A stretch of DNA of 50,577 nt from an uncultured Clostridia bacterium (GCA_947383095.1 CANDBZ010000002.1:1-50577), one strand, 5' to 3'; counted from the first letter of the stretch, positions 28,101 to 50,566 are shown. Translations and numbers: made by a program. Notes: generated by a model from the sequence alone, not told the origin.

Positions 28101-28964
28101 CGCCTTTTCGCATATCTCCGTCGCGCCGCCGAGGTCTATTATCTTCACTTCGTTGTTGGCAAACGCGCTTGCTCCTATCTTGCCCGCAAACTCGGACATA
28201 TCTACGATCTCCACGTTTTCGTTGGATGCGAACGCGCTTGCTCCGATCTCTGTGACGGACGAAGGTATTTTTACCTCCGCCGCGTTGAGATATCTCATCG
28301 AGCCGATTTTCGTGACGGGCTTGCCGTCATAGCTCGACGGAATGACGACCTCCGTGGGATAGGAATATTTGCTTATCGCCGATATCTCCCACTCGCCGTT
28401 TGCGAGCTGCTTATACTGCCAGCCGTTTTTTATTATGTCGTCGTTGGGCTTATCCTGCCAGATCGCGACGGCGGTTATATTTTCCGTAAGACTCCACGCG
28501 GACAAGGACGCGCCGTCCTTATTTGTTATCGCGCTGCCTCCGTACGACCACCCGCCGAATATCTTATCCGCTTTCGTCGCCGTACCGAGATCGTATTGCG
28601 CGCCGAACGTCACTTGCTTCGTCGTCTGCGTAAGCGCGTCGCCGCCGTTGACGTCGAGCGTAACGGTAAATTTCTTTGCCGACCATTTTGCGACAAGCGA
28701 GATATTGCCGTTGACGGTCGAAGCAAAATCAAAGGTCGCGCCGTCCAAAAGCCATTCTTCAAAATCATATCCCGTCCTTTGCGGGTCCTGCGGCTTCTCA
28801 ACGGTTTTGCCCTTTACAACGGTTTTTTCAAACGACTGCACGCCCTCTCCGCTAAACGTTACCTTCACGTTTTCGGGCGGATCGTCGTTGCATGCGGCAA
28901 GCGTAAGGGCACACAACGCGACGATAAGTAAACAAACAATGAAAATCAAGCCTCTTTTTTTCAT
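25200..28964 (-). CDS. large surface lipoprotein with InlB B-repeats (Listeria-Bacteroides repeat) and BspA-type leucine-rich repeats
   Basis: Lipobox LTLAAC. There are two units of the form TGYxFxxW...G..FDF...V.....L.A.W, plus repeated IPSSVTEIGASAFA-type LRR_5 units. I set the start at the ATG (MKKRG), which has GAGGTG upstream. Confidence 0.85.
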   Translation of the reverse strand: MKKRGLIFIVCLLIVALCALTLAACNDDPPENVKVTFSGEGVQSFEKTVVKGKTVEKPQDPQRTGYDFEEWLLDGATFDFASTVNGNISLVAKWSAKKFTVTLDVNGGDALTQTTKQVTFGAQYDLGTATKADKIFGGWSYGGSAITNKDGASLSAWSLTENITAVAIWQDKPNDDIIKNGWQYKQLANGEWEISAISKYSYPTEVVIPSSYDGKPVTKIGSMRYLNAAEVKIPSSVTEIGASAFASNENVEIVDMSEFAGKIGASAFANNEVKIIDLGGATEICEKAFENTKVVIFAIPSTVTRIGDKAFKSLDTFEIGFAGAAFPTLGNDVFGNGVRGDEALQIVARACAWDAVLAGAETGTMQIVRRFLQVEEVDPYSFSDEEMDQSEVTQGIFKNDSRDLTLYRGYSMTAVIYDFAQVATTEMYADTHVYIEDEDGVRDTYLIDYTASTLTMLAKNQKGETVSDNTLYDYQGSDLVYRVPDGVTAVASGACINNGTTRFLILGDGVASVGDYAFAMGQLFGIEFGTGIRSIGGGAFLNQSYLQQVVFRGTTPPTIGEAAFCVLSQIGVCPTFMYNSLSQFGVYAYIYTPLSTASYDDVNASAFVEAFNASIATIDNLPMDGNNDPITYKMGYEGEFKKLETDGTFAAGGSASTPYGAIKFTGTDTGYALIEFGEDSGYTGLGYVYYSSMNLPGYTESNAPKKLSIYTRFVDSSDGGYIDKFDVQGMFSGGKLILRGAEAGSYGAFDADKLTLDGFGKYTFVSELGSVSTGTYSVTGNTIELVGMESATATFDADNSTVTYKGNVMTALGGEAGVYYDLDNAAKITLDGKQYTVGSGNDEKTYSGKLTLEYKDEKITVGYSVQFSEIIFNLNGMERKWDYSTTSEDYVVRGYFGPGSYDNMLQFKIVTKSGEGTYTFEDDERIQITLDGYFTAEMIDGEITDKFRYYVFKQSGAILLIASKDDGDAEIKVLYLLPDNKFKLAGVSAPEACGWFVSAGANRFVAFDGLGNLLYFDGSEYKSGTYTFDISTGALNTTVEGNETQTNGMLDLEKYRGYMVYDRWGDTYMALSQGRPFETFKTSYGTSMSISSTTFICAEDGDKIVSTSPSFNIYYAYGTLFISTYNNVFAMVEIDSLADGATATFEYTVKKGETPITATYRIVFTETDGIFKAEITPFEQYAEVVTATIDGETYYFAWFNDAKSSVAIYTLDSYGGTLTVGGAVIWQEDATFTVGEYTVTGYGTANVTLTKNDQ

Positions 28965-29261
28965 AAACACCTCGACAAATTATAACTTTTACGAGTCAAA
29001 GCTTCTTTCGTTTTTCTCTTATAATGAATATAAGATTTATAAATATAATATATCACATATTATGATTTGTCAATTTGCCCGCCGTGTATGAATAATTATA
29101 AAATTTTGCCAATAAATATGAATAAGCTTTGACCCTGAAACATGCAAGATAATGCAGATTTGCAAATTCCGTTTCTTTAATTCTCGTTTGATCAATAATT
29201 TATGTATACGGTTCATAATACGCGTATAGCGGAGAGACCGTCCTTATGCGCGAAAATATAT

Positions 29262-29783: not shown

Positions 29784-30359
29784 TCAATAATCAAGCAGCC
29801 GACCGTTATCGTTCCATTCGCCGAACATTATATTTTGTCTGGTGTTATCAATAAGCTTTTTTAGCCGTCTGTTAAATAATTCGGGATCGTTTTTCTTGAT
29901 CTGTATCGTATCCACTCTCACCCGTTGATATAGCGGCGGAAAATTTAAAAAGTTTTTCCACGTTATATCGTCCTCCTGCAACGCGGATAAAATTTCCCCG
30001 TCAACAGTAAAACCGGACGGGGACATGTCCGGCAAAACCGCGCGACCGCTGTCCGTCATCAAGCCCAACTTCTCCAATCTGCGGCACCGTTCTTTGTTCA
30101 ATTCCGACCACTCCGAATTTTTTCTGCGCCGCGCAAGCCTTTGCGCCGTAACTCCATTATCAAGCGTCTTTGTCGTGCTGTCTATCCATCCGAAACACAT
30201 CGCTTCTTCTACGGCGTCTATATACCAAAAAACATCGCCGTTTGTAGGCTTGCCGCGTTTGACGATCACCCAGCACTCCTTCTCCTTATCGTGGTTTTCA
30301 ATAAGCCACCGACGCAGCTCTTCACGGTTTTTGTCTTTCAATAAATTCTTCGGTTGCAT
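29784..30359 (-). CDS. YdeI/OmpD-associated family protein
   Basis: The N-terminal region ELRRWLIENHDKEKECWVIVKRGKP ... WYIDAVEEAMCFGWIDS is typical of the YdeI/OmdA family. Confidence 0.75.
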   Translation of the reverse strand: MQPKNLLKDKNREELRRWLIENHDKEKECWVIVKRGKPTNGDVFWYIDAVEEAMCFGWIDSTTKTLDNGVTAQRLARRRKNSEWSELNKERCRRLEKLGLMTDSGRAVLPDMSPSGFTVDGEILSALQEDDITWKNFLNFPPLYQRVRVDTIQIKKNDPELFNRRLKKLIDNTRQNIMFGEWNDNGRLLDY

Positions 30360-30845: not shown

Positions 30846-30990
30846 GTAGCGCCTGTTGAGGGACTTGAACCCCCGTGTAATAGCAGCGTTGCGTGAGCTT
30901 GCTCACTCTTGCAACCTGCGCCCACTTCGGTAGAAGTGTCGGCAGGCATAGCCTGCGCCGCATTGCGGCTTGGGGTACAGTCCCTCTCGT
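30846..30990 (-). ncRNA. tRNA-like structured element. Its 3' end is an exact copy of the tRNA-Asn T-arm plus 3' acceptor strand, and its 5' two-thirds are unrelated GC-rich hairpins.
   Basis: 30849-30875 is identical to 31024-31050 (27 nt). Nested hairpins are visible (GCCGC-AAU-GCGGC, GCAGGC-UAU-GCCUGC, CACUUC-UACC-GAAGUG, GUUGC..GUGAGC-AA-GCUCAC..GCAAC). Terminator-like hairpins bracket it on both sides. Confidence 0.45.
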
Positions 30991-31021: not shown

Positions 31022-31097
31022 TGGCGCCTGTTGAGGGACTTGAACCCCCGACACTTCGGTTAACAGCCGAATGCTCTACCGACTGAGCTAAACAGGC
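31022..31097 (-). tRNA. tRNA-Asn (anticodon GTT), CCA encoded
   Basis: The hand-folded cloverleaf has acceptor GCCUGUU/AACAGGC, D arm GCUC-AGUCGGUA-GAGC, anticodon loop CUGUUAA and T arm GGGGG-UUCAAGU-CCCUC. Length is 76 nt. Confidence 0.92.
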
Positions 31098-31185: not shown

Positions 31186-31740
31186 TTATCGCCCGCTTCT
31201 CATCACCTTGCATCTCGCAAATTTTGAGACGCACAGCTTGTCGATATCCGTTTGACATGTCAAACGCTCACTCAAAAGCTCTCCCGCCTCTTTATCAAGA
31301 TTTGCTATACCGAAAACGACAAGACACTTCAGGTCCTCGTCTGTACTGCCGAAAAAACATGCGCATGCTCTGTCTTTCGCCTTCTTCGATAGTTTTTGTA
31401 TCCTGCGGCAGCGAAGCTCGTCGCATATAAGATGGGACATAATCTTATCGTCTATCCTGTAATAAATACAGTTTTTATTTTCGTTCTTATATTGCGCTAT
31501 AAGCCCGTCAAGCGACTGCCCGTCCGACAGCTCGATTTCATTTTCCTCATCAAAGCAATCGTCTTGCGCAATGCTCAATATGCACTCCAAAAACATTCTG
31601 TCGCCTTCGCTTTGAAGCTGATATTTGTAAATCACGTAAGTCCCGTCCGGAGAGGCGTTACAACCTATCTCCGCAAACGCGTCGGCCAATATAAGTTTAA
31701 TGTGCTGTTCGTTTAGCAACATACAATAAAGATTTTTCAT
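31186..31740 (-). CDS. hypothetical 184-aa Cys-rich cytoplasmic protein (last gene of the 4-gene cassette)
   Basis: AGAGGGA SD, 13 Cys, no signal peptide or TM, no recognisable motif. Confidence 0.7.
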   Translation of the reverse strand: MKNLYCMLLNEQHIKLILADAFAEIGCNASPDGTYVIYKYQLQSEGDRMFLECILSIAQDDCFDEENEIELSDGQSLDGLIAQYKNENKNCIYYRIDDKIMSHLICDELRCRRIQKLSKKAKDRACACFFGSTDEDLKCLVVFGIANLDKEAGELLSERLTCQTDIDKLCVSKFARCKVMRSGR

Positions 31741-31782
31741 TTTTCCCTCTTTTTCTCACTTCTAATCGGGCGATTTTTCCGT

Positions 31783-32658
31783 CTATTTATTTTCTCTTCC
31801 AAACGCCTCGATATATGCTTTTTCAAGTTGTCTTTTATCTGCTGGAATGTTCTTCCCAAAAGGGCTTTGAACGCAAGCTTTAAGCAAATCGTCGATATTT
31901 GCCTTTATGTCTTCAACGACCCATTTCGCCTCTCCGCCGAGATATAACGGACCCGTCGTCACAAAATATTTAAACCGCAACTCAACGTCTCTCGACCCGT
32001 CCGTACGCGTTATCCCGCAAAGATTGAAATACTTATTGTCTAATTTATGCGCGACTTTCAAAAACAGGACATCGTCCGTCCGCATATCTATAGCAAACAT
32101 GTAGCCGTTGTCGTACGCCAACAAAAAATACTCGTTCAATCTGTCGACGGCAATGCCTGTGAGCGTATCTCCGGATACTTTATATTTGAATATGTTTTTG
32201 ACTACTCTACCGCTCTTTGCGCTTATCAACGACAGTCCGCCCGAGGACGACGACCACTCGCAAAAAATTTTGTCTTGATATACAAACACTTTAGTCAATC
32301 TGTTTATGGGGCTTTTCCACAACACTTCGTTTGTGCATAAATCGACGCACTTCGTTTCATTCCTTAAGTACGACGGCACTATGGCGTATTTGTCGAGCAG
32401 TATGCTTATACCCTTTTTCGCTTCGCAAAGAGCGAGCGCCTCTATATTTGTAAGTTGTATGCTTCCCGCAATCTTGCCGTACGCATCGTAAAAGTCGCAT
32501 TTTGCAAGCTCGTTCATACGCGCGCCGCTTTCTTTGCTGAACATTGGATTGACAAACTCGCACTCGCATCTTAAAAACCGCGATGAATCAAACGACTCGT
32601 ATATCGCTTCAAAATTGCCTATCTCCCTGCTTCTTTCAAAATCCGACTTAAAAATCAT
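31783..32658 (-). CDS. hypothetical 291-aa protein, paralog of the 32675-33550 product
   Basis: Alignable blocks against its neighbour: TNEVLWKSP vs TNKLLWSWP, CEWSSSSGGLSL vs TEWCFTGRGGLTV, VDRLNEYFLLAYDNGYMFAIDMRTD vs INRLNEQFMFIYSEGGVFLLDMHTD, and EKAYIEAFG vs ERAYKKLFG. Confidence 0.75.
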   Translation of the reverse strand: MIFKSDFERSREIGNFEAIYESFDSSRFLRCECEFVNPMFSKESGARMNELAKCDFYDAYGKIAGSIQLTNIEALALCEAKKGISILLDKYAIVPSYLRNETKCVDLCTNEVLWKSPINRLTKVFVYQDKIFCEWSSSSGGLSLISAKSGRVVKNIFKYKVSGDTLTGIAVDRLNEYFLLAYDNGYMFAIDMRTDDVLFLKVAHKLDNKYFNLCGITRTDGSRDVELRFKYFVTTGPLYLGGEAKWVVEDIKANIDDLLKACVQSPFGKNIPADKRQLEKAYIEAFGRENK

Positions 32659-32674
32659 ACGCTTTTTTTAAAAT

Positions 32675-33550
32675 TTACGCCTCCGCGCCGAACAACTTTT
32701 TATATGCTCTTTCCACTCCTACTATAGTTGTTGGAATTCTTATTCCTAAAGGACTTTCTTTAATTTCATCAATTATTTCTTTTATCGGCACGGTTATCTC
32801 TTTTTTCTCCCATCCCAACGGGTCTGTTGAATACACGCGAACATATCCCTTGTTAACAAATGTGAACGTTAAATTCCCGTCGTTGTTTTCAACATTCGTT
32901 AAAACTACAAACTCCGCGTCTTGAGTCATAAATTCGCGGAAAAGTTTTTTAGACATATATAGTTTATCCGTATGCATGTCAAGCAAAAACACACCGCCTT
33001 CCGAATATATAAACATAAATTGCTCATTCAATCTGTTTATATAAGGATGATGCATTTTTGTATTGTAGGTCATTACCTGCCGCAGTATCTCGCCGGTTTC
33101 CAAATCAAATACGGTCAGTCCTCCCCTACCTGTAAAACACCATTCCGTGTAAACGTCTTTACCTCTGACATAAACATAATAAAACTCATTTGCGGGCCAG
33201 GACCACAACAGTTTGTTAGTCTTTATCTCAAAACATGCTGCTGCGCCTTTATATGCGCCGGGAAAAATCAAATGCTTTCCGTTTTCCGCTACAGCAATAG
33301 GTTTTTCCCATGCAAAACAACTCCACGCCTCCGAGTTTGGAAGCATAAGACGACTCACTTCGTTATCGTCGTCATCGTATAATCTACACTCCGCAATTAT
33401 GCCCTTATTTGTGAAATATTTGCAGTCGCATACGCTTTTTCTTATTTTTTCCGACTCATATTTTTCATATGTTGTAATAACGCGCCCCTCTTCCTGCCGC
33501 GGTAAGCCTCCACTTATCAATGATTTATCTATATTTGATTGCGCTTTCAT
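32675..33550 (-). CDS. hypothetical 291-aa protein, paralog of the 31783-32658 product
   Basis: AGGGGAAA SD, identical length and shared blocks with its neighbour. The strand-rich repeat pattern hints at a beta-propeller-like fold, which is inference only. Confidence 0.75.
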   Translation of the reverse strand: MKAQSNIDKSLISGGLPRQEEGRVITTYEKYESEKIRKSVCDCKYFTNKGIIAECRLYDDDDNEVSRLMLPNSEAWSCFAWEKPIAVAENGKHLIFPGAYKGAAACFEIKTNKLLWSWPANEFYYVYVRGKDVYTEWCFTGRGGLTVFDLETGEILRQVMTYNTKMHHPYINRLNEQFMFIYSEGGVFLLDMHTDKLYMSKKLFREFMTQDAEFVVLTNVENNDGNLTFTFVNKGYVRVYSTDPLGWEKKEITVPIKEIIDEIKESPLGIRIPTTIVGVERAYKKLFGAEA

Positions 33551-33561
33551 TTATTTTTCCC

Positions 33562-34311
33562 CTACATTGTCTCGAGGTCTAAAATCTTCTTCTTTTTGCC
33601 GCAATTTGCGCACTCGAGCTTTATTGTTATCCAATCAAATGCGTCTCTCCAATTCTCTTCCGTCACGACGTCCGTGCCGTCGCCGACGTTGTCGCAAAGC
33701 AGCTGCTCCTTGCCTATATTTGAAAACGTCAAAAATATTTTGTATCCCGCATCCTTGCAATGTTCTCTTTTTGTCTTCATATTCCCGTCCGCCGCATATT
33801 GCTTATCCGGTTCGTCAAAATGATTGCACATGCCGTCGTACCCGTGACATCTGCTGTCAAACAGCACAATTTCTTTGCCGCACTTTTTACACTTTGCAAC
33901 AAGATATTCATAAATCGTGGGGCTGTCGTCGTCTTCCATGAAAAAATGTCCTATATAGTTTTTATCCTTTATTGCCTCCTCAAGCGAGCCGTAATCTTTA
34001 CCCAACTCGCCAATAACATACATCCAGCAGTTTTTACCAAGCTCGCCGCCGCCCGTCCAAAGACACATATACTTTATCTCGTTTTCCTCGGTATAATTTT
34101 TAAAAGGTCCTATTCTTTTATCTCTCATCTCCTCGGCTTTTTTCTCTATTTCAGCCATCTTTTCCATAAAAGGATAACTGCGCTTGAAGTATATATATCT
34201 ATACTTAAAAACATCGCTTCCGCAATCGCAAATTATTTCGCACGTTTCTGTTTCACCTTTGACGGATACCGTGCGCGCATTATTTTTTATATATTTTGGA
34301 ATTATCGACAT
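33562..34311 (-). CDS. hypothetical 249-aa protein with paired CxxC motifs (zinc-ribbon-like)
   Basis: AGGTGG SD. Cys motifs are C-x3-C-x-C (CEIICDC), CKKCGKE, CHGYDGMC and CANCGKK. Confidence 0.75.
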   Translation of the reverse strand: MSIIPKYIKNNARTVSVKGETETCEIICDCGSDVFKYRYIYFKRSYPFMEKMAEIEKKAEEMRDKRIGPFKNYTEENEIKYMCLWTGGGELGKNCWMYVIGELGKDYGSLEEAIKDKNYIGHFFMEDDDSPTIYEYLVAKCKKCGKEIVLFDSRCHGYDGMCNHFDEPDKQYAADGNMKTKREHCKDAGYKIFLTFSNIGKEQLLCDNVGDGTDVVTEENWRDAFDWITIKLECANCGKKKKILDLETM

Positions 34312-35487: not shown

Positions 35488-35499
35488 AGGAAGCGCGTC

Positions 35500-35508
35500 T
35501 GTGGACAA
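35500..35508. promoter_or_regulatory. DnaA box, 8/9 match (TGTGGACAA vs TGTGGATAA)
   Basis: Direct read upstream of dnaN. Confidence 0.5.
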
Positions 35509-35550
35509 CGCAAAACACATGTTTATCTTTTGTTGAAAACAAGCACGGGG

Positions 35551-35559
35551 TTATCCACA
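35551..35559. promoter_or_regulatory. DnaA box, perfect TTATCCACA
   Basis: Direct read 149 nt upstream of the dnaN ATG. I found no other perfect box by eye. Confidence 0.65.
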
Positions 35560-35707
35560 CCGCTTTTTTGATATAAATCTATATATTGATATTTTGTCGA
35601 AGTAGCAGCACTATCGATAGATTTATTGTGTTTTTTTCCACTTGTCAACATGGCTTATTTATGTTATCATTATTAAAAATAAATATAATAAATATCAGGT
35701 GAAGAAA

Positions 35708-36808
35708 ATGAAGGTTTTATGTCAGGGAAAAGAGTTGAGCGACGCTCTCTCGAAAGTTGTAAAGGCATTGCCTCAAAAGAGAAATAATCCTATACTCGAA
35801 GGCGTTAAATTGTCCGCATACGGCGATACACTCACACTCTTCGCAACAGATCTCGAGCTTGCTATAGAAAAGAAAATAAACGCGCAGGTCTTGATAGAAG
35901 GAGAAATCGTAGTTCCGGGCAAGCTGTTTGCCGACTATGCTAAAAAGATAGAAGAAGAACAGGTTGAATTGGACGGGACGACGATAACCAAGCTCGTCAT
36001 AAGATATCTTGAAAGCGAGCTTCAAATGAAAAGCCTGACAAGCGACGAATATCCGCTCTTTCAGGAGATAAACGCGGACAACTCTTTCACGATACTCAAG
36101 AAGGACTTTAAGGAAATCATAAACAAAGTGTTGCTTGCCGTGAGCGTCGACGACAGCAGGCCTGCTTTGAGAGGCGTTTGTCTCAATATAAAAGACGAAG
36201 AGGTCGAAGCCGTTGCAACTGACGGATACCGTCTCGGCTCCGCAAAGGCGTTGATCAAGAAAAACGGTATCGTCGGAAAGCTTGTCGTGCCGTCGAAGAG
36301 TATCACGGAGATAAGCAGACTTATAGACGACAGCGACGAGACGGTTACGGTGTTTGTAGAAAAGCATTATATCATGGTGGATCTTTTCCATACGAAAATC
36401 GTCACGCGTCTCATCAGCGAGGAGTTTTTAAATTACTCGAAGGTCATTCCGACTTCTTTCGAGACGACAGTTACGGTAGATAAGCAGGTTTTTGAAAAAG
36501 CGATCGATCGCGCTTCCCTTATCAACAGAAACGAGCGCAATTCTATCGTAAAGATCGATGTAAAAGAAAAGGAAATACTTCTCAATGCGCGCAGCGAGGA
36601 CGGCGAAATAAACGAGCGTATAACCGCAGGCATAAACGGAAAGGATATCACGATTGGTTTTACGGTCAAATATATTAGCGAATGCTTGCGCGCCATCGAC
36701 GATCCGTTTATAACGCTCAACTTCAACACATCCACTTCTCCATGCATTATAAACAGCGAAAACGGAAATTGGCTTTATCTGATTTTGCCGATCAGGGTCA
36801 TAGGTTAA
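35708..36808 (+). CDS. dnaN: DNA polymerase III beta subunit (sliding clamp)
   Basis: MKVLCQGKELSDALSKVVKALPQKRNNPILEGVKL...TDLELAIE is typical of DnaN. I set the start at the Met with AGGTGAAG upstream. The ORF track opens at 35642. Confidence 0.95.
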   Translation: MKVLCQGKELSDALSKVVKALPQKRNNPILEGVKLSAYGDTLTLFATDLELAIEKKINAQVLIEGEIVVPGKLFADYAKKIEEEQVELDGTTITKLVIRYLESELQMKSLTSDEYPLFQEINADNSFTILKKDFKEIINKVLLAVSVDDSRPALRGVCLNIKDEEVEAVATDGYRLGSAKALIKKNGIVGKLVVPSKSITEISRLIDDSDETVTVFVEKHYIMVDLFHTKIVTRLISEEFLNYSKVIPTSFETTVTVDKQVFEKAIDRASLINRNERNSIVKIDVKEKEILLNARSEDGEINERITAGINGKDITIGFTVKYISECLRAIDDPFITLNFNTSTSPCIINSENGNWLYLILPIRVIG

Positions 36809-36810
36809 AA

Positions 36811-36842
36811 AAAGCCGCTCATCGGGAGCGGCTTTAATTTTT
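36811..36842. terminator. bidirectional terminator between convergent dnaN and dnaA
   Basis: aaagccgctc-atcg-ggagcggcttt flanked by A and T runs. Confidence 0.75.
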
Positions 36843-38210
36843 TTATCTGTTTAAAAGCATGTTTTTTATGTCTGCTACGGTTATCTTTATACGCGTGTTG
36901 GTTTTGATCTCATCGGTTATTTTATCGCGCGCATGGATAATAGTAGTATGATCTCTGCCGCCGAAAATCTCACCTATTTGAGCGAGAGGCATCGGGAGTA
37001 AATCCGTGATGAGATAAATTGCGATCATCCTCGGCTCCACAAGATTTTTTGTCTTTTTCTTTGAAAACAAATCATCCGTAGAGATTTTATAGAATTTGCA
37101 GACAGCGCCAATAATATCGCTTGCGTCGATCGCTCCGTCTTTATCCTCGATAAAATCGCTCAACGCTTCCGCGGCGAGCTCTCGCGTGTTTATGACATTG
37201 TTTGTAAGAGAACTGAAAAACACGATTTTGTTTAACAAACCTTCCATTTCTCGTATATTAGAAGTTGCGTTTTCCGCGATATAATCGGCAACCTCGTCCG
37301 ATAGCTGAAATTTTGCCTGCGCCGCTTTATTTTTCAAGATAGCGACTCTCGTTTCCATATCCGGCGGCTGTATGTCTACAGTCAATCCCCAGCTGAAGCG
37401 AGTGCGCAATCTATCCTCGAGTGTGGTCAGTTCTTTTGGAGAGCGGTCGGAGGTGATTATAATCTGTTTATTTGTTTGATATAAATCGTTGAATATATGG
37501 AAAAATGCTTCCTGCGTTGCGTCTTTTCCTATCAAAAATTGAATATCGTCGATCATAAGAACGTCGCAGGATCGATATTTTTCTCTGAATTTATTGTTTT
37601 CTTCGTTCGATTTTGTTCTTATGACCGAAATAAGCTCCGTGACAAGCGTTTCCGCGCTGACATAAAGAACGCTCAAATTACTTCTATCCTTGCAAATAAG
37701 ATTACCTATTGCGTGAAGCAAGTGGGTCTTGCCGAGTCCTACTCCCGAATATATAAACAGCGGATTGTATTTTTGACCCGGAGTGTCCGCGACCGTCTTG
37801 CATGCAGCCAAAGCATAGGCGTTGGACTTGCCCTCGATAAAAGTGTCGAACGTATATTTGTCGAGAAAGGGCGATTTTGTTTTTTGAGTGTCGGCCATCG
37901 GCCTTTTTTCAGATTGAGGAGAAACAAGAGAATCCGTCTGTTTGTTTATATATTCTTCCTTTTGAGAAGGGAGAATGACCAACACGTCCGTTATAGACGA
38001 ATTTAAAGACGAAACGACTTCTTTTATAATTTCCAGATATTTGTGATCGATAGTTCTTTTGGCGCTTGCTGCAACGGTAGATAAAACAATCGTGTTATCG
38101 ACAAAACAAACAGGCTCGAGTGCTTCTATCCAAACCTCGTAGTATATAGCCTGTATCGATTTTGAAAGCTCGTATTTGGCGTCCGACCAAAATTTTTCTA
38201 TGTTTATCAT
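36843..38210 (-). CDS. dnaA: chromosomal replication initiator protein DnaA
   Basis: Walker A GVGLGKTHLLHAIGN, DDIQFLIGKDATQEAFFHIFN and the C-terminal DNA-binding HTTIIHARDKI. I set the start at MINIEKFWSD. The 36-codon upstream extension looks like translated AT-rich spacer. Confidence 0.93.
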   Translation of the reverse strand: MINIEKFWSDAKYELSKSIQAIYYEVWIEALEPVCFVDNTIVLSTVAASAKRTIDHKYLEIIKEVVSSLNSSITDVLVILPSQKEEYINKQTDSLVSPQSEKRPMADTQKTKSPFLDKYTFDTFIEGKSNAYALAACKTVADTPGQKYNPLFIYSGVGLGKTHLLHAIGNLICKDRSNLSVLYVSAETLVTELISVIRTKSNEENNKFREKYRSCDVLMIDDIQFLIGKDATQEAFFHIFNDLYQTNKQIIITSDRSPKELTTLEDRLRTRFSWGLTVDIQPPDMETRVAILKNKAAQAKFQLSDEVADYIAENATSNIREMEGLLNKIVFFSSLTNNVINTRELAAEALSDFIEDKDGAIDASDIIGAVCKFYKISTDDLFSKKKTKNLVEPRMIAIYLITDLLPMPLAQIGEIFGGRDHTTIIHARDKITDEIKTNTRIKITVADIKNMLLNR

Positions 38211-38216
38211 AATTGA

Positions 38217-38244
38217 ATTATAGCAAAAACAAGGAATAAAACAA
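38217..38244 (-). promoter_or_regulatory. candidate dnaA promoter with its -10 box ending 6 nt before the ATG
   Basis: The minus strand reads TTGTTT, a 16-nt spacer, TATAAT, then tcaatt-ATG. There is no SD. Confidence 0.35.
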
Positions 38245-38317
38245 GCAAAAATCCGAAAATAAAAAACAAAAGCATTATGTTGAAAAAAAATCGAGGTTAA
38301 TATATACTTATTGTGCA

Positions 38318-39406
38318 ATGAAAATCATCTCGCTGGAGCTAAATAATTTCAGAAACTATAAGCACGCGTTTGCGGAGTTTGACGACGGGCTTAACGTTTT
38401 ATATGGAAAAAACGCAAGCGGAAAGACAAATATGATTGAAAGTATTTATTTATGCTCTATTTTTCACAGCCCGCGCACAACCAAAGATAAAGAGATGGTT
38501 TTGATCGGAGAAGCAAAGGCAAATATAAATCTTATTTTGCAAAAGAAATACAGAAAGCACAGTATAAATTTGCAAATAGACGAAAAAGGCAAAAAGAAAA
38601 TATTGGTTGACAATATTCCTCTTAACAGAGCCGGCGAATTGTTTGGAGTACTCGGCGTGGTTTATTTCTCACCCGACGAAATGAAGCTTGTAAAAGAGTC
38701 GCCGCAAGAAAGACGCAGATTTATGGACGTCGGGTTGAGTCAACAGCAGCGAAGCTATTTTTATGCGTTGCAGCGGTATAACAAAACGCTCAAGCAAAAA
38801 AACAATCTTTTAAAGGAATGGAGAAATAATAAAAATATAGATTCTATGCTCGACGTGTGGGATATGGGGCTCGCAAAGGAAGGCGCGGAGATAATTTTCA
38901 AAAGGATAGAATACGTCAAGGTGTTGAACGACGCGGCAAGCAAATTTCATACCGCGATGAGCGAAGCAAAAGAAGAGTTGAGATTGACGTATGAATGCGC
39001 CGCTGATATTTCTGATAAAAACGAGCTCAAGCAATCATTATATGAAGAGATAGTAAAAACGCGAGCAAAAGACAAGGAATTGGGATACTGCACGGTGGGT
39101 CCTCACAGAGACGATATAAAAATAGAGATAAACGGAAAGGACAGCAGAAAATTTGCTTCTCAAGGACAGCAGAGAACTATCGCGCTTGCACTTAAGCTCG
39201 GCGAAGTTATAATATACAAAAACGAAATAGGCGAACCGCCCGTACTTTTGCTTGACGACGTATTGAGCGAGCTCGATATGCAAAGACAAAAGCTTTTGCT
39301 TGAGATGACGGCAGGGTTTCAAACTATACTGACCTGTACAGAGTTTGATATGAATGAAAAAGCAAACAAAATACAAATAAGCGACGGCGCCGTTATTCCA
39401 GGATAA
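38318..39406 (+). CDS. recF: DNA replication and repair protein RecF
   Basis: MKIISLELNNFRNYKHA, Walker A GKNASGKTN, and the C-terminal signature and Walker B regions (SQGQQRT, LLLDDVLSELD). Confidence 0.93.
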   Translation: MKIISLELNNFRNYKHAFAEFDDGLNVLYGKNASGKTNMIESIYLCSIFHSPRTTKDKEMVLIGEAKANINLILQKKYRKHSINLQIDEKGKKKILVDNIPLNRAGELFGVLGVVYFSPDEMKLVKESPQERRRFMDVGLSQQQRSYFYALQRYNKTLKQKNNLLKEWRNNKNIDSMLDVWDMGLAKEGAEIIFKRIEYVKVLNDAASKFHTAMSEAKEELRLTYECAADISDKNELKQSLYEEIVKTRAKDKELGYCTVGPHRDDIKIEINGKDSRKFASQGQQRTIALALKLGEVIIYKNEIGEPPVLLLDDVLSELDMQRQKLLLEMTAGFQTILTCTEFDMNEKANKIQISDGAVIPG

Positions 39407-39461
39407 TTGCTTAAACACAGCTTTAAGTATGTAAAATGATAATATAAAAGGCTTAATTAAA

Positions 39462-39485
39462 AAACCGCTCTTTTGAGCGGTTTAA
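39462..39485. terminator. bidirectional terminator between recF and parB
   Basis: aaaccgctc-tttt-gagcggttt. Confidence 0.75.
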
Positions 39486-39487
39486 AT

Positions 39488-40402
39488 TTAGTCTTTCTTT
39501 TCTTTGTTTGAAATCTGAAGCAATTGCATTATCGCATGTATGCGCTCGAGGTCGTCGTCTGTGAAATAATCAATCACGATTCTTCCCTTCGAGCCTTTTC
39601 TTATCAACGTGACCTTTGTGGAAAACAGTCGTTTCATATCGTTGACGAAATTTTTATATTCGAGAGGCAGCTGTTCTTTTTGTTTGCGTTTTGCGCCTGC
39701 CTGGCGTGAAGGACTTGCAAAATAGTTTTGCACCATTCTTTCCAGATCGCGTACGGATATATCTTGCGCGCACGCAGTCTTTGCCATCTCGATAAGCTTT
39801 TCTTTGTTGTCGACCGTGAGTATGGTGCGGGCGTGTCCCGGAGAAAGCTTGCCCGATTGAACCATTTCTTTGACTTCGTCGGGAAGCTGCAACAGGCGGA
39901 GAGTATTTGTGACGTACGGACGGGATTTGCCTATGCGTTGAGCCACCTCCTCCTGTGTGAGATTGTGGTTTTCCATCAGCTCGCGAATACCCTCCGCGGC
40001 TTCGATAGCGTTTAGGTTTTCGCGATGAAGGTTTTCAATAAGGGATATTTCCTGTATCTGTTGAGGGGTGAGCTCGCGCACGATGGCGGGGATTTTTTTA
40101 AGACCGGCAAGCAGGCTTGCCCTGAAGCGGCGCTCGCCTGCGATGATAAGATATCTGCCGCCTTCGCTCTTGACAAGCAGAATGGGTTGCAAAACTCCGT
40201 ACATGGAAATGGAAGTCGCCATTGACTTAAGGCTTTCTTCGTCAAAGGTTTTTCTCGGCTGATTGGGATTGCGGTCGATAAGCTGTATGTCGATTTCCTG
40301 CGTAGGGACGTCGTCGGCAATATCCACCCTGATGTTTTCCGTATTATCTCTGAATAGAGCGCTCATGCCTCTCTGTCCGAGGCCGCCTTTAGTATTTGCC
40401 AT
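39488..40402 (-). CDS. parB: ParB/Spo0J chromosome partitioning protein
   Basis: NPNQPRKTFDEESL, the GERRFRA box and an HTH region. Confidence 0.93.
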   Translation of the reverse strand: MANTKGGLGQRGMSALFRDNTENIRVDIADDVPTQEIDIQLIDRNPNQPRKTFDEESLKSMATSISMYGVLQPILLVKSEGGRYLIIAGERRFRASLLAGLKKIPAIVRELTPQQIQEISLIENLHRENLNAIEAAEGIRELMENHNLTQEEVAQRIGKSRPYVTNTLRLLQLPDEVKEMVQSGKLSPGHARTILTVDNKEKLIEMAKTACAQDISVRDLERMVQNYFASPSRQAGAKRKQKEQLPLEYKNFVNDMKRLFSTKVTLIRKGSKGRIVIDYFTDDDLERIHAIMQLLQISNKEKKD

Positions 40403-40410
40403 GTTTCACC

Positions 40411-41178
40411 TCACAGTCCTTTTGAACAAAATTCGTCTGCCAACGCGGAGTATGCAGTAGCTCCCGCGCATTTTTTATCGTACAATGCCACCGGTTTGCC
40501 GTAGCTCGGCGCTTCCGCAAGTCTTATATTTCTCGGTATTTTTGTTTGGAATACCTTGTCGCCGAACACGTTTAATACCTCTTCCAACACGCCCTTTGCA
40601 AGCTTCGATCTGCTGTCGAACATTGTGAGAACTACGCCGAATATCTCAAGGTCTTTGTTGAGAAACTTTTTTACGAGCTTTATGGTGTTGAGCATCTGAC
40701 TCAAGCCCTCGAGCGCGTAAAACTCGCTTTGTATGGGAACGATCACTCCGTGAGAAGCCGTGAGAGCGTTGACCGTGAGCAGTCCCAGAGACGGAGGGCA
40801 GTCGATAAATATATAATCGTATTCGTTTTCAATTTCCGCAAGCTTGCCCTGCAAAACGCTTTCTCTGCCGATCACGATCTGCGATAGCTCGAGCTCCGCT
40901 CCCGCGAGATCGCAGGATGACGGGATATAAAACAGATTTTTGATTTCCGCCTCGCGCACGGCTTCTTTTGTGGGGAGATCGTCGCAAAGAACCTCATATA
41001 CGGATTTCTCCACTGTCTTTTGAAATTCGCCGAGCGCGCTCGACGCGTTGCATTGCGCGTCGAAATCCACGACGAGAACGCGCTTTCCGTTTAGCGCCAA
41101 AGCAGCCGCGAGATTTACGCAAGTCGTAGTTTTGCCTACGCCGCCTTTTTGATTTGAAAAAGAAATAATGCGTGCCAT
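40411..41178 (-). CDS. parA: ParA/Soj chromosome partitioning ATPase
   Basis: Deviant Walker A NQKGGVGKTTT. 255 aa. Confidence 0.93.
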   Translation of the reverse strand: MARIISFSNQKGGVGKTTTCVNLAAALALNGKRVLVVDFDAQCNASSALGEFQKTVEKSVYEVLCDDLPTKEAVREAEIKNLFYIPSSCDLAGAELELSQIVIGRESVLQGKLAEIENEYDYIFIDCPPSLGLLTVNALTASHGVIVPIQSEFYALEGLSQMLNTIKLVKKFLNKDLEIFGVVLTMFDSRSKLAKGVLEEVLNVFGDKVFQTKIPRNIRLAEAPSYGKPVALYDKKCAGATAYSALADEFCSKGL

Positions 41179-41246
41179 ACGACGAGTTTATCACACTCCC
41201 GATTTTTTTTCAACAAGGTAATTTATAATTTATAAGCAAATAACGG

Positions 41247-41939
41247 TTATAACGGCTTTTTCTTTATTACGCCGTATTGGCGCGGGTATTGAGGCGGAGT
41301 GACGGCGACTTTTTCAAATACGATTATCGCGCGTCTGTCTCCGCCGGGCAGAGCGCAAAGCTTTGTGTTTTTATGTATCGCGCCCAAAGTCTTCATTGCG
41401 GAGGTCGTGCCCGCCAATTCGCTTTCGTCCGTTTTATATGCTACAAACACCCCGCCTGTTTTCAAAAGCGGCATGCTCAATTCAAGCAGGACGGGCAGCG
41501 AGGATACGGCTCTTGCGGTAACCGCGTCGAATTTTCCGAACAGCTTTTTTTGCTCCTCCGCTCTGCCTGATATTGCGGTTAGATTTGAAATATCAAGCAT
41601 ATTTGCGGAGCTTTGTACAAAATTTATTTTTTTTGCCGTGGAGTCAAGCGCCGTCACGGATATATCCTTGCGAGCGATAGCAAGCGGAACGGCGGGAAAG
41701 CCTGCGCCCGAGCCTATATCGCAGACGTTTGCGCCGCGCGGGATTTCGCTTGCGCCTATAAGAGAATCAACGATGTGCTTCACGATAAAATCGTTTACGT
41801 CTGTGATCGCCGTGAGGTTGAAGCTTTTGTTTGCTTCCAACACCAAATCGACGTAGCGTAAAAGAGCGCTACGCATTGTTTCGTCTAGAGGTACGTTTAT
41901 TTGGTTTGAATAAATCAAAAGCGCGTCTGACGGGTACAT
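41247..41939 (-). CDS. rsmG: 16S rRNA (guanine527-N7)-methyltransferase
   Basis: SFNLTAI...KHIVDSL and the SAM motif DIGSGAGFPAVPLAI. Confidence 0.9.
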   Translation of the reverse strand: MYPSDALLIYSNQINVPLDETMRSALLRYVDLVLEANKSFNLTAITDVNDFIVKHIVDSLIGASEIPRGANVCDIGSGAGFPAVPLAIARKDISVTALDSTAKKINFVQSSANMLDISNLTAISGRAEEQKKLFGKFDAVTARAVSSLPVLLELSMPLLKTGGVFVAYKTDESELAGTTSAMKTLGAIHKNTKLCALPGGDRRAIIVFEKVAVTPPQYPRQYGVIKKKPL

Positions 41940-42038
41940 ACTTAAATTTTAACAGTTATCGGAATATAAAGCAAGCATATTGAATTTTCAGGATAACGGT
42001 GATATCATTAAAACAACAAGCCGAAAAGGAGAATGAAG

Positions 42039-42764
42039 ATGAGGATAGGTATTATTACCGCGCTTGCGGAAGAAATGATGCCGATATACGGCAAGCTTGG
42101 CAACGTTGCCGCAGAGACCGTGATACACGGCGTGCGCATAAGACATATAAAGCTCGGCGCGGACAGCATATATCTCGCAACGGGCGGCGTCGGCGAGGTC
42201 AACGCGGCGCTCACACTGCAAATGCTTGTTGACATGTTCGATATAGAGGTTGCGCTCAATTTCGGATTTGTAGGGACGCTCAATCCGGCTATAGGTATAG
42301 GCGAGCTTGTGATTGCCGACAGAGTTTGCCATTATCAATTCGACACTTCGCAGATAGACGGGACGAAGCCCGGACAGTATCTTGACAACGACGATATCTA
42401 TTTTTATCTTGACGGATCGCTTGTCGAAAAAACGCTCGCCGCAATCGGCAAGCCCATAAAAAGAGTCGCCGTCGCGAGCGGAGACGTGTTTGTAGCGGAC
42501 GGCGCGACAAAGCGCAGATTGGCGGATGAGTTCGGATGCGACATATGCGAAATGGAGTTGGCCGGGCTGGCTATAGCGTGCAACAGAAACGGGATCCCGT
42601 TGCTTTCTGTAAAAGCCGTATCCGACAGAGCCGACGACGGCGCGCCCGTAAGCTTTGACGAGGCGTTGGCAAAAGGGCTTTCGAGATATGACGAAATACT
42701 GCCGGCGGTGATTGCCGCCGTTACGGGAAAGACGTCGCCGTTGCCGCCCGTAAAGAATAGATAG
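42039..42764 (+). CDS. mtnN: 5'-methylthioadenosine/S-adenosylhomocysteine nucleosidase
   Basis: MRIGIITALAEEM and EMELAGLA...KAVSDRAD motifs. I chose the second ATG for its SD spacing (AAGGAG 7 nt upstream). Confidence 0.85.
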   Translation: MRIGIITALAEEMMPIYGKLGNVAAETVIHGVRIRHIKLGADSIYLATGGVGEVNAALTLQMLVDMFDIEVALNFGFVGTLNPAIGIGELVIADRVCHYQFDTSQIDGTKPGQYLDNDDIYFYLDGSLVEKTLAAIGKPIKRVAVASGDVFVADGATKRRLADEFGCDICEMELAGLAIACNRNGIPLLSVKAVSDRADDGAPVSFDEALAKGLSRYDEILPAVIAAVTGKTSPLPPVKNR

Positions 42765-42817
42765 CCGCAAAAACGATAGTTAAAATACCGGTTTTGTCTA
42801 TTTAAACAGGTAAATGA

Positions 42818-42852
42818 GAAAACGGCGGGCTGTCAGCCCGCCGTTTGATTTT
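42818..42852. terminator. bidirectional terminator between mtnN and gyrA
   Basis: aacggcgggc-tgtca-gcccgccgtt followed by tgatttt. Confidence 0.75.
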
Positions 42853-42866
42853 GCGTGAATATAGGT

Positions 42867-45422
<2,556 letters not shown>

Positions 45423-45437
45423 GATCTCCTCCCAATA

Positions 45438-47372
<1,935 letters not shown>

Positions 47373-48241
47373 TTATATAAATTATATATACAATAATATA
47401 GTTTAAATAATTATATCAGTATAATATATAAAAAGCAAGCTCTTTTAAAAAACAAATTAAATGGTTAACTTGTGAATTAAAATAACACATTTAAATGCAT
47501 TGAAAATATTCAAACATAAGCTGAATAACAATTATAAATGTCGTCAATTTTTTATCGAAATTTTAAAACGTACAAATTTTAAAAATATAAAATAAATATT
47601 AAAGCCTGGTTATCGCGTGCAACCGAAGCCGTCAAATTATATGGTATACTATTTATAAAGAAGCGGTCTTCAGTGATATTTTTATTATGAGAGCTGCGTG
47701 CAAGTAAACTGAAGCTCAATTAAAACAAACAATTAAAACGAGTCGGTGTGCAAAATTTATTACATCATTTGTTATAATCCTACTATGTTTTATAATGCTG
47801 CGCAAATTTATCACCGTAATGATGCAATTAATGTTAAGCAATTTATCGCTATAGCAATGCAATATAATATTGAGTTGCGACGCATTTGGTTTTATGGCCT
47901 TTGAATTTCAGCCGTATTAAATATGTAATAATGCGTATAAGAAATACAAACAATATTAAATAAATCGTAGGCGAATGCGTTAATATTGTATGATGATTTT
48001 TACGCTATTTACCATGCCGTAACTTGCGAGCATTCATTACGCGATTAATAGCGTAATCCCGTTTCGTATATACAAAGCGGCGTCGGAGAGGCATTTTTCT
48101 GTATAACGGTTTTATGTTCGGGAAGTCTGTAGATATTAAAAATGCACGGCATGCTAACGTCGCAATCAACCGATTTGCACAATAAACTTTAAATGTGCTT
48201 GAATGATAGAGACGGCGACGCTATGGTGAGTCTGGTTATAT

Positions 48242-48257
48242 TGTTTCCCGTGAAACA
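48242..48257. promoter_or_regulatory. parS site, 15/16 (TGTTTCCCGTGAAACA)
   Basis: One mismatch to the Firmicutes parS consensus TGTTNCACGTGAAACA. Confidence 0.75.
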
Positions 48258-48388
48258 TTTTTTTATTAGCGTAGATGATTTAAATACATAATTAACACAA
48301 ATAATGCCTGTGAATGTCGGAATGGTCGACGTGCGAGATTCTTTAAATAAGCAATGAGAAAACCATCGTATTTGCGCGCGTTTATATA

Positions 48389-48404
48389 TGTTCCACGTGA
48401 AACA
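48389..48404. promoter_or_regulatory. parS site, perfect (TGTTCCACGTGAAACA)
   Basis: Exact 16-nt match to the B. subtilis-type parS consensus. Confidence 0.9.
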
Positions 48405-48420
48405 TTTTTAGCTTGGCAAA

Positions 48421-48436
48421 AGTTTCTCGTGAAACC
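48421..48436. promoter_or_regulatory. degenerate parS-like site (AGTTTCTCGTGAAACC)
   Basis: 13/16 to the consensus, 17 nt downstream of the perfect site. Confidence 0.5.
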
Positions 48437-48712
48437 ATTGGGCGATTTTACCTACTAAATAGTAGCATTTTTATACTAAACAGAGGCGCTGTGATAAAAT
48501 TTTGCGTTTCTCCGTTATTGGCATTTTAGCAAAATTTAGCATTTTGCTCCCAAATTTTTTTATAACGAATGTTTTGCAAGAAATCGCATGATTTTTTATT
48601 GGTTTCACACAGCTAACGATTGTTTGATTTGCGTCATATTGAGTATAAATCTGCATTCAAAAGCTAAAGCGTCTTTAATTATAGAAATTAAGTTTACAAG
48701 TAAACCTATTTG

Positions 48713-48743
48713 GCCGAATAATAGCATTTTGCTATTATTCGGC
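48713..48743. repeat. perfect 13-bp inverted repeat with a 5-nt loop (gccgaataatagc-atttt-gctattattcggc)
   Basis: Direct read. It is followed on the plus strand by ggcgtttt, so it could be a weak terminator or a protein-binding palindrome. Confidence 0.6.
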
Positions 48744-48865
48744 GGCGTTTTGAACATGTTAGACCGCAGAAAATTGAATTTATGCTTGAAATTGAAGGTT
48801 TAAACTGATATATTTTATATAACTACTATATGTGCGCTGTGCGGGCGCATTGAGGGAGGAGGTTT

Positions 48866-50566
48866 ATGGAAGAGAGAAAATGGTTTAAGGAGATGTCGGT
48901 ATATCAAATCTGGCCGCGTTCGTTTTGCGACGGTAACAATGACGGAATAGGCGATTTGAAGGGCGTGCTGACAAAGCTCGAATATATTAAAAGCGTCGGC
49001 GTTGACGCAATATGGTTTTCGCCGCTGTACGTATCTCCGCAGGCGGACTATGGATATGACATCGCCGATTATTGCGATATAAATCCCGAGTACGGTACCT
49101 TGGACGATTTCAAGGAGGTGCTTGAAAAGGCGCACTCTTTGGGATTGAAGGTGATAATGGATCTGGTGATAAACCATACGTCCGACCAACACGAGTGGTT
49201 TAAAAAGAGCGTCAAGCGCGAAGCGCCGTATACTGATTTTTATATATGGAGCAAGGGCAAAGGTAAGAACGGCAAAAAGGCCCCCAATAATTGGATGTCC
49301 ACCTTCCCCGGTTCCGCATGGGAATATAACGAGGAGAGAGGCGAGTTTTATCTGCACCTTTACGCCAAGGAGCAGCCCGACCTCAATCACGACAATCCCG
49401 CTGTCAGAGAGGCTATCAAGAGCGTCATGCGTTTTTGGCTGGATATGGGCGTAGACGGCTTCAGAGAGGACGTTATAACGCAGATAAGCAAGGCGGAGGG
49501 GCTGCCCAACGGCAATCCGATAATGCCTGCGTCGAGAGGCTTGGAACATTATAATTGCGGTCCGCATATCCACGAGTATTTGAGCGAATATCGCGAGGTA
49601 TTGAAGGATTACGACGCGTTTCAGGTGGGCGAGGCTCCGTTTATGACGCCTAAAAAGGCGCTTACCTTCGTCAACGAAAACAAAAAAGAGCTCGATATGA
49701 TGATATCCTTCCAACATATGGAGGCGGATTGCATCATGATAGAGTGGGTGCATCTGCCCTTTAATCTTGTCAAGCTCAAAAAGATCTACGACAAGTGGCA
49801 GACGATGCTTTTCGGCAGAGCGTGGAACGTGAATTATCTCGAAAACCACGACCATGCAAGGATAATCACGCGTTACGGCAGCGAAAAATACCGCGTGGAA
49901 AGCGGCAAATGTCTTGCCTTGATGTATACGTTCTTAAGCGGCACACAGTTTGTCTATCAAGGGCAGGAGATAGGCATGACCTCGCTGCATTACGACAAGT
50001 ATCCCAAGGGCAGCGACCCGTGGACGCAGTTCAAGGACGTGTCCACCTTCTGCGTGAGAGACCTCATGAAGAAATTCGGTTTCAGCGAAAAGCATATCCT
50101 CAAGGTCGCGCCGCATGCGGCAAGGGACAACGCGCGCACGCCCGTGCAGTGGTCGGCGCAGAAGAACGCGGGCTTCAGCGATGTCGAGCCGTGGTTTACC
50201 GTCAATCCCAACTATAAGGAAGTCAACGTGGAAGCGGCGGAAAACGACCCCAAATCCCTGCTCAATTTTTATCGCAAGCTGCTTGCGCTACGCAAGGAAT
50301 ATAAGGAAGCGGCGATTTACGGCGAATTTGTCATACATCGCAAGAGAGACAAACATCTGTTTGTATACGACAAGATCGCAAAGGACGGCGCAAAGCTCAC
50401 GGTCATTCTCAATGTCAGCGACAAGCCCGTGCCCTGCAAGCGCGTCAAGAAGTACATCGATAAAAACGCGAAGGAGATCGCTTCCGTGTACGACGGCAGC
50501 TTTGCGGAGCTTATGAGACCTTATGCGGGCAAGGTGTTTTACACAGATCGGAAGAGCGTCGTGTAG
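48866..50566 (+). CDS. GH13 alpha-glucosidase / oligo-1,6-glucosidase family. The 3' end is not trustworthy because the last 22 nt and the stop codon lie in adapter sequence.
   Basis: WWKEAVVYQIYPRSF-type N-terminus (here WFKEMSVYQIWPRSF), DLVINHTSDQHEWF, GVDGFREDV, the FVNENKKELDMM/ISFQHME region and YLENHDHAR. GGGAGGAGG SD. Confidence 0.9.
   Translation: MEERKWFKEMSVYQIWPRSFCDGNNDGIGDLKGVLTKLEYIKSVGVDAIWFSPLYVSPQADYGYDIADYCDINPEYGTLDDFKEVLEKAHSLGLKVIMDLVINHTSDQHEWFKKSVKREAPYTDFYIWSKGKGKNGKKAPNNWMSTFPGSAWEYNEERGEFYLHLYAKEQPDLNHDNPAVREAIKSVMRFWLDMGVDGFREDVITQISKAEGLPNGNPIMPASRGLEHYNCGPHIHEYLSEYREVLKDYDAFQVGEAPFMTPKKALTFVNENKKELDMMISFQHMEADCIMIEWVHLPFNLVKLKKIYDKWQTMLFGRAWNVNYLENHDHARIITRYGSEKYRVESGKCLALMYTFLSGTQFVYQGQEIGMTSLHYDKYPKGSDPWTQFKDVSTFCVRDLMKKFGFSEKHILKVAPHAARDNARTPVQWSAQKNAGFSDVEPWFTVNPNYKEVNVEAAENDPKSLLNFYRKLLALRKEYKEAAIYGEFVIHRKRDKHLFVYDKIAKDGAKLTVILNVSDKPVPCKRVKKYIDKNAKEIASVYDGSFAELMRPYAGKVFYTDRKSVV

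Follow-up and report, generated by a model that had tools for sequence, protein, structure and literature searches.

In Bacillus subtilis the parS sites are often located inside genes, and one of them is found in spo0J. Most parS sites lie near ori, as in the Caulobacter cluster approximately 8 kb from it, and this clustering has been proposed to raise the local concentration of ParB (PMC5815017). Clusters near ori are found in Caulobacter, Pseudomonas aeruginosa and Streptomyces, and Listeria innocua, a Firmicute, has 22 parS sites (PMC5815017, PMC7022226). In P. aeruginosa, segregation needs no more than one parS of the origin-proximal cluster (PMC4368675, PMC7022226); half-sites are bound too, and ParB can repress adjacent genes (PMC7022226, PMC4368675, PMC5961200). 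ParB variants specific to parS have the residues R-X-X-G (R173, G201), while Noc has Q-K-K-R (Jalal et al., PMC7383237). Binding of Noc, with its residues Q..K..K..R, goes together with an A at position 1 and a C at position 6 of the site (PMC7383237).

Here we compare with these systems a cluster of three parS-like motifs from an uncultured Clostridia bacterium of the mouse gut. The whole stretch of DNA analysed, 50,577 nucleotides in length, is below called the window. The motifs were first pointed out in a preliminary description of the window.

Origin Region and Gene Order

The gene order was assigned with Pfam and NCBIfam (Table 1). The minimum of the cumulative GC skew, near 34-35 kb, coincides with a cluster of DnaA boxes, in which the sole perfect TTATCCACA of the window is at 35551 and further, weaker boxes are at 35500, 35531, 35634 and 35642. 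Because the skew minimum and the box cluster are found together upstream of dnaN, we infer that oriC is located at about 35.5-35.7 kb. From this putative oriC to the parS cluster the distance is approximately 13 kb (12.7 kb), and dnaA, dnaN, recF and gyrBA are all within 13 kb of the cluster.

Table 1. Features of the window and, in the last five rows, groups of parS sites in other gyrB neighborhoods (positions in the respective sequence).
Feature	Position	Strand	Remarks
ArsP-like gene		+	before dnaN
Putative oriC core	35490..35700	.	DnaA-box cluster followed by AT-rich stretch, upstream of dnaN
dnaN	ORF from 35642, ends 36808	+	JGI gene call of 366 aa implies start near 35708
dnaA	36843-38210	-	
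recF	38318-39406	+	
parB	39488..40402	-	chromosomal-type ParB, 304 aa; Pfam ParB_N + HTH_ParB
parA	40411..41178	-	soj-type Walker ATPase, 255 aa; Pfam AAA_31, CbiA, ParA; immediately upstream of parB
rsmG	41247-41939	-	
MTA/SAH nucleosidase gene	42033-42764	+	
gyrA	42867-45422	-	
gyrB	45438-47348	-	
Intergenic gap	47349..48865	.	1517 bp, between gyrB (-) and alpha-glucosidase gene (+); holds the parS cluster
parS-1	48242..48257	.	TGTTTCCCGTGAAACA, 1 mismatch to TGTTNCACGTGAAACA (A>C, core position 6, one half-site)
parS-2	48389..48404	.	TGTTCCACGTGAAACA, perfect match to TGTTNCACGTGAAACA
parS-3	48421..48436	.	AGTTTCTCGTGAAACC, degenerate, 3 mismatches to TGTTNCACGTGAAACA
parS half-site GTTTCAC	48602..48608	+	context GGTTTCACACAG; approximately 180 bp beyond parS-3
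Alpha-glucosidase gene	48866-50566	+	
L021 (Clostridiales MAG)	14695-14915		three perfect sites in 205 bp, 329-bp intergenic gap
L059 (Bacilli MAG)	14484-14583		three perfect sites with an exact 42-bp period, just after gyrA
L079 (Melioribacteraceae MAG)	10970-11042		perfect pair at a distance of 57 bp, directly upstream of gyrB
L035 (Ruthenibacterium)			pair separated by 58 bp
L022 ([Eubacterium] hominis)			pair separated by 212 bp

The origin genes (35642-47348) are scrambled in comparison with the usual order dnaA-dnaN-recF-gyrB-gyrA. The dnaA gene is on the strand opposite to dnaN and recF, convergent with the former and divergent from the latter, with approximately 107 bp between dnaA and recF. 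Between recF and gyrA lie parB-parA-rsmG, and transcription of gyrBA is directed at the putative origin. The same scrambled order is present in independent JGI and ENA contigs. In L002, a more distant relative, gyrB comes directly after recF. A DnaA-box-like doublet, TTTCCACTTRTCAACA, occupies positions 35635-35650 of the window, within the putative oriC upstream of dnaN. The three sister genomes described below have it approximately 5 nt beyond the final parS of their arrays (L001 4724, L086 4793, L087 1349), where it may be an extra DnaA-box element beside the centromere.

Elsewhere in the window there is a 27-nt exact direct repeat (30849-30875 and 31024-31050). It corresponds to the 3' portion of tRNA-Asn (31022-31097, minus strand) and recurs 175 bp downstream of the tRNA; it may be a remnant attachment site. 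The GC content drops from approximately 50% to 37-45% beginning near 29 kb. Several long ORFs have no Pfam match, namely two adjacent ones of 809 and 876 aa on the minus strand (in 3205-8267), one of 1076 aa on the plus strand (in 21347-24577) and, beside the putative origin, four consecutive minus-strand genes of 184, 291, 291 and 249 aa (31186-34311). A surface protein of 1256 aa with BspA-type LRR/Listeria-Bacteroides repeats is encoded at 25200-28970.

parS Sites and Their Spacer

According to the preliminary description, three sites with zero, one and three mismatches to the parS consensus are located within 195 bp of non-coding DNA. All of this was confirmed: 16-bp inverted repeats matching TGTTNCACGTGAAACA are present at the three places, from 48242 to 48436, in a gap that contains no ORF of 100 aa or more. 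The mismatches of parS-3 concern the two outermost bases and core position 6 (A>T). Measured from center to center, parS-1 and parS-2 are 147 bp apart, and parS-2 and parS-3 32 bp; parS-1 and parS-2 also have a 21-nt repeat, TGTTYCMCGTGAAACATTTTT, in common. The first spacing corresponds to 14 helical turns and the second, conserved at 32-33 bp, to about three, which we mention as curiosities and not as evidence.

At up to three mismatches, the 50.6-kb window has seven strand-matches to parS against 1.16 expected, a number reached in none of 100 dinucleotide-preserving shuffles. Six of the seven are the two strands of the three near-palindromic sites, and the sole match outside the cluster, at 21352, has three mismatches. 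For a three-mismatch match to occur by chance within 200 bp on either side of a true site the probability is approximately 1%. The degenerate parS-3 may be non-functional. No other parS within two mismatches was found in approximately 67 kb of contiguous sequence around the origin, comprising the window, 10 kb to its left (L166) and 6.8 kb to its right (L169). This local uniqueness fits with the cluster being the main local centromere, although the remainder of the genome may have more sites or better ones.

The GC content of the gap is approximately 36%, compared to approximately 50% for the window. Its sequence is letter-for-letter the same in four independent assemblies (one from JGI and three from ENA) and is therefore real sequence and not an assembly artefact. 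It is also identical in Logan contigs from several mouse-gut runs, and no strain variation was seen at the parS sites in any independent contig. All runs containing the sequence are DNA-type runs from mouse gut. There are no Rfam matches, either at the gathering threshold in the whole window or at E<=1 in the gap. In the gap no terminators were called, and promoter-like sites do not exceed the shuffled expectation. No DnaA box within one mismatch of TTATCCACA is present in 47349-48865. Searches of the gap by blastn against 72,556 plasmids and 50,697 phage records gave no similarity. Small ORFs conserved with relatives were absent from the gap in an all-against-all blastp comparison of frames of at least 25 aa from the homologous regions of five genomes, and neither the TrhA-like nor the OmdA-like protein of L001 had a remnant in the gap by tblastn.

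The preliminary description equated the whole AT-rich spacer with the centromere. While the parS identity of the sites is supported, this claim is overstated, as parS is confined to approximately 200 bp of the 1.5-kb spacer and the stretch of approximately 800 bp from gyrB to parS-1 is not conserved even in sister species.

ParA and ParB

The distance between parAB and the cluster, described earlier as 7-9 kb, was measured as 7.06-8.95 kb. The window ParB passes the NCBIfam model parB_part with 192 bits (cutoff 58) and stays below the cutoff of the Noc model (225 bits, cutoff 315). Its best matches among solved structures are the chromosomal ParBs of Myxococcus, B. subtilis, Thermus and Caulobacter. 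The CTP-binding box is present as GERRFRA (GERRxRA type). Aligned to the DNA-binding domain of Caulobacter ParB (6S6H), the protein has R-T-Q-G at the positions of R173/T179/A184/G201, and to judge from these residues it is a ParB of the parS-specific class (RXXG). Thus, parS-specific helix-turn-helix residues and a CTP box occur in one protein, and a partner ParA with Walker-type ATPase features is encoded in the adjoining gene. No SMC or ScpAB genes are located in the window.

Both imperfect sites of the window (48242 and 48421) deviate from the core at the same place, position 6. Since G201 of ParB makes no base-specific contact at parS position 6 (PMC7383237), tolerance of such variants is plausible. 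The outermost bases that are mismatched in parS-3 are variable also among the conserved sites of the sister genomes.

A scan for sites agreed with the earlier statement that parB has no full parS. The half-site reported at the 5' end of parB does exist, as GTGAAAC at 40403-40409, but it is outside the parB ORF, between the stop codon of parA and the ATG of parB. There it overlaps the likely Shine-Dalgarno sequence (gaGGTGaaacATG) and for that reason need not relate to parS; it is probably part of the ribosome-binding region and not a parS remnant.

Related Genomes

Searches anchored on GyrB yielded three sister genomes, of which L001 comes from a genome collection and the other two, L086 and L087, come from metagenomes. 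Their GyrB proteins are 93-94% identical to that of the window and their coding DNA is approximately 79% identical, whereas the intergenic DNA is almost unalignable to the window by blastn. The closest genome record, L001 (CAVANK010000022.1; GyrB 94%), carries the label Butyrivibrio crossotus. Christensenellaceae/Clostridia MAGs give the next-best GyrB matches (69-75%) and true Butyrivibrio hungatei reaches 60%; the label of the L001 bin looks wrong, or at the least doubtful.

Each of the three sister genomes has five parS-like sites in an ORF-poor island adjoining gyrB, in arrays that extend over 1.1-2.8 kb and have captured genes inside the island. The comparison with related genomes proposed in the preliminary description showed that the 48389/48421 pair is conserved in all three, with the sites kept and the flanks diverged. 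The positional homologue of parS-2 is TGTTTCACGTGGAACA in L001 (4115), L086 (4068) and L087 (843), and in the alignment of this region (A2) 16 of the 18 columns, the 16-mer and two bases 5' of it, are invariant. The homologues of parS-3, CGTTTCACGTGGAACG in L001, CGTTTCACGTGGAACA in L086 and GGTTTCACGTGAAACG in L087, all have an intact 14-bp core and are 33 bp from the partner site, compared to 32 bp in the window; 12 of the 14 core columns are invariant, compared to a mean column identity of 56%. Because intact cores are kept at this spacing in the sisters, parS-3 did not arise as a match by chance but descends, in decayed form, from a good parS. Further conserved blocks follow downstream of the pair, one of which includes the GTTTCAC half-site. 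The block GTTTCACAC around it is invariant between the window and L001 (alignment A1), and L086 and L087 have GTTTCAC at the equivalent position. This conserved motif at 48602 may be a candidate half-site for ParB. For parS-1 no positional homologue was found in the sister genomes, which have other upstream sites at variable distances. In L088, a more distant relative (GyrB 88%), there is no parS near gyrB, so the location is not deeply conserved.

The order in the sisters is parS island, trhA-like gene, gyrB>, gyrA> and alpha-glucosidase>. Thus gyrBA lies across the island from its place in the window and is inverted (window 42867-47439 versus L001 5761-10254, L086 5925-10389 and L087 2541-7020), and the orientation of the island relative to the nucleosidase and alpha-glucosidase genes is the same in the window and the sisters. 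To account for this placement of gyrBA, at least two inversions or a transposition accompanied by inversion are needed, and the island would be where their breakpoints lie. The parS variant TGTTTCACGTGTAACG is present in two identical copies with similar flanks in L001 (2826-2852 and 3687-3713; flanks TATAGAAAA) and likewise in L086 (1956 and 3386). In L001 the copies bracket an inserted gene (3045-3683, minus strand), the protein of which is 66% identical to that of a DUF8412/OmdA-family gene at 29784-30359 of the window. Such copies suggest that the parS array grows by segmental duplication.

A perfect 14-bp palindrome, GTTTACAAGTAAAC, is found in the window at 48692-48705 and in L001 at 2434-2447 and 4800-4813, within a 19-nt identical block. 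The two L001 copies flank the parS array and the palindrome is absent from the other 166 loci, but the single match in the window is not above chance and overlaps a promoter-like -35 element. A perfect hairpin with a 14-bp stem (48713-48743, GCCGAATAATAGCA-TTT-TGCTATTATTCGGC; -21.6 kcal/mol, z = -4 to -5 on either strand) separates the palindrome from the promoter region of the alpha-glucosidase gene; it was not called a terminator because of its weak T-run.

One could speculate from these comparisons that the centromere of the clade is a dedicated, largely gene-free and fast-evolving parS island of 1.5-5 kb, although at present we consider this rather improbable. It would grow by duplication, given the TGTTTCACGTGTAACG copies in L001 and L086 that in L001 bracket a captured gene, and shrink, given three sites in the window against five in the sisters. 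It would also act as a rearrangement breakpoint, given the opposite side and orientation of gyrBA and the GTTTACAAGTAAAC copies flanking the L001 array. If true, the island would offer a natural setting in which to study the expansion and movement of bacterial centromeres, which has been called an open question (Tran et al., PMC5815017).

The parS Cluster as a Probable Centromere

With a probability of about 0.85, the three motifs are genuine chromosomal parS, which as centromere-like sites load the ParB whose gene is 8 kb away. The identification is based on the excess of the motif, the cognate ParA and ParB, the proximity of the putative origin and the conservation of the pair. For ParB occupancy and spreading, segregation driven by ParA and SMC loading at the cluster we rely on analogy with the studied ParABS systems (the ParBs of B. 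subtilis, Caulobacter and Myxococcus). By this analogy, the 16-bp palindromes would be recognized by ParB dimers via their helix-turn-helix domains, and parS binding would lead to CTP-dependent closing of the N-terminal gate of ParB. The resulting clamps would slide onto flanking DNA and form a partition complex on the kb scale, covering the gap between gyrB and the alpha-glucosidase gene together with its neighbors. ParA-ATP on the nucleoid would then pull the complex and separate newly replicated origins. The complex would be a likely entry point of SMC condensin, which makes the cluster a probable SMC loading site. The main nucleation point would be the perfect site at 48389, and the position-6 variants at 48242 and 48421 would probably provide weaker, added loading capacity.

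No new mechanism is implied by these data. They allow the centromere and the origin region of an uncultured gut Clostridia lineage to be annotated with confidence. In addition, the number of sites and the neighboring genes change fast between sister species and the cores of the sites are preserved, and this comparative picture bears on the origin and upkeep of parS clusters.

Other explanations of the motifs were considered. It is unlikely that the sites are mainly a transcriptional operator by which ParB tunes gyrBA and/or the alpha-glucosidase gene, with segregation being secondary. The cluster is indeed placed between divergent units, the start of gyrB being 0.9 kb and that of the alpha-glucosidase gene 0.43 kb away, and P. 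aeruginosa ParB represses genes beside the intergenic parS3 and parS4 (PMC7022226). However, at 430-900 bp from the start codons the sites are not over the promoter-like elements found. The neighbors in the sisters are different (TrhA-like and OmdA-like genes, inverted gyrBA), yet the parS pair persists, so that conservation goes with the sites rather than with a particular regulated gene. Regulation of this kind would also be compatible with the centromere reading rather than exclusive of it. Very unlikely, in our opinion, is a decaying relic, in which one functional or formerly functional parS and two degenerate copies would be left in junk DNA from the gyrBA inversion and the working centromere would be elsewhere. 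Two of the three sites are imperfect, the sisters have five, the 800 bp beside gyrB are unique and non-conserved, and gyrBA is across the island and inverted relative to the sisters, all of which could be expected of a relic. Nevertheless, one site is perfect and another has its single mismatch at a weakly read position, and a single parS suffices in P. aeruginosa (PMC4368675). Furthermore, the approximately 67 kb around the putative origin offer no alternative site, and the gap is identical in four independent samples.

The low GC content (36% versus approximately 50%) and the lack of genes in the gap could also be explained if the gap were left over from an integrated plasmid or phage, the partition sites of which would be unrelated to the chromosomal ParB. 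Centromeres of plasmids are typically tandem arrays, which would agree with such an origin. Yet neither the plasmid nor the phage records gave a blastn match and the gap has no ORF remnants, so that what would be expected of a plasmid or phage partition site, a setting of mobile-element DNA with partition genes of its own, is missing. The motif is moreover the chromosomal consensus, and the island is in the same neighborhood in three sisters, which makes a mobile origin extremely improbable. Finally, the chance that the motifs serve a role without ParB, as Noc sites, as part of oriC or as weak terminator hairpins, is next to negligible. At position 6 TGTTTCCC resembles the NBS half-site ATTTCCC (PMC7383237), but an NBS, a ATTTCCCGGGAAAT-type palindrome, needs A at position 1, whereas all sites of the window have G there, and C at position 6 occurs in one half-site only. 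The sole ParB-family protein of the window is below the Noc cutoff and has R..G instead of Q..R. With no DnaA box within one mismatch, the gap does not qualify as oriC; the box cluster is at 35500-35650 instead. At 48242 and 48389 the site precedes the run ATTTTT and is able to fold into a 6-bp hairpin whose z-score is significant, but this hairpin has only -4 kcal/mol, was not called as a terminator, and its T-run is not conserved in relatives.

Comparison with Described parS Systems

The Spo0J/parS system of B. subtilis has the same 16-bp consensus, TGTTNCACGTGAAACA, as the window, and Spo0J (6SDK) matches the window ParB with E = 4.5e-51, the GERRxRA box and the conserved helix-turn-helix being present in both. 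In both cases the sites are origin-proximal and parA-parB follow rsmG. Unlike in B. subtilis, the sites of the window are in non-coding DNA, parB is without a site, and there is no Noc paralogue between rsmG and parA. Distances of 5-39 kb separate the strongest sites of B. subtilis (PMC5815017), whereas the window has three within 195 bp. In Caulobacter crescentus sites of unequal strength are clustered kilobases from ori similarly to the window, at approximately 8 kb versus 13 kb, but there at least five sites extend over approximately 5 kb within essential or high-fitness-cost genes, whereas the window has three in 195 bp of an ORF-free gap (PMC5815017). The parS1-4 sites of P. aeruginosa resemble the window in forming an origin-proximal cluster with some sites intergenic (PMC7022226, PMC4368675, PMC5961200). 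That species belongs to another phylum, and the available sections of these reports describe no pair or triplet tens of bp apart.

The closest counterparts are the sister arrays, with the same island, a pair 32-33 bp apart and downstream conserved blocks including the half-site; relative to the five sites of L001, L086 and L087 the window is a reduced three-site version. Outside this clade, a survey of 160 gyrB neighborhoods from diverse prokaryotes revealed parS with at most one mismatch in 13, of which 11 have two or more sites. Pairs within 250 bp are present in six of the 13, or in eight when two-mismatch sites are counted. In L021, L059, L035 and L022, two or three perfect sites are found within 42-212 bp in intergenic DNA near gyrB or gyrA, as in the window. 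The earlier view that in model Firmicutes the sites are mostly single and dispersed holds for B. subtilis, which does not stand for the Firmicutes in general. Similarly, the implication of the preliminary description that a tight intergenic triplet is unusual did not survive the survey, as 6-8 of the 13 unrelated gyrB neighborhoods with parS have tight intergenic pairs or triplets. Beyond the B. subtilis model, parS pairs and triplets packed closely between genes are common and not unusual, and the cluster of the window is an ordinary example of a well-known arrangement.
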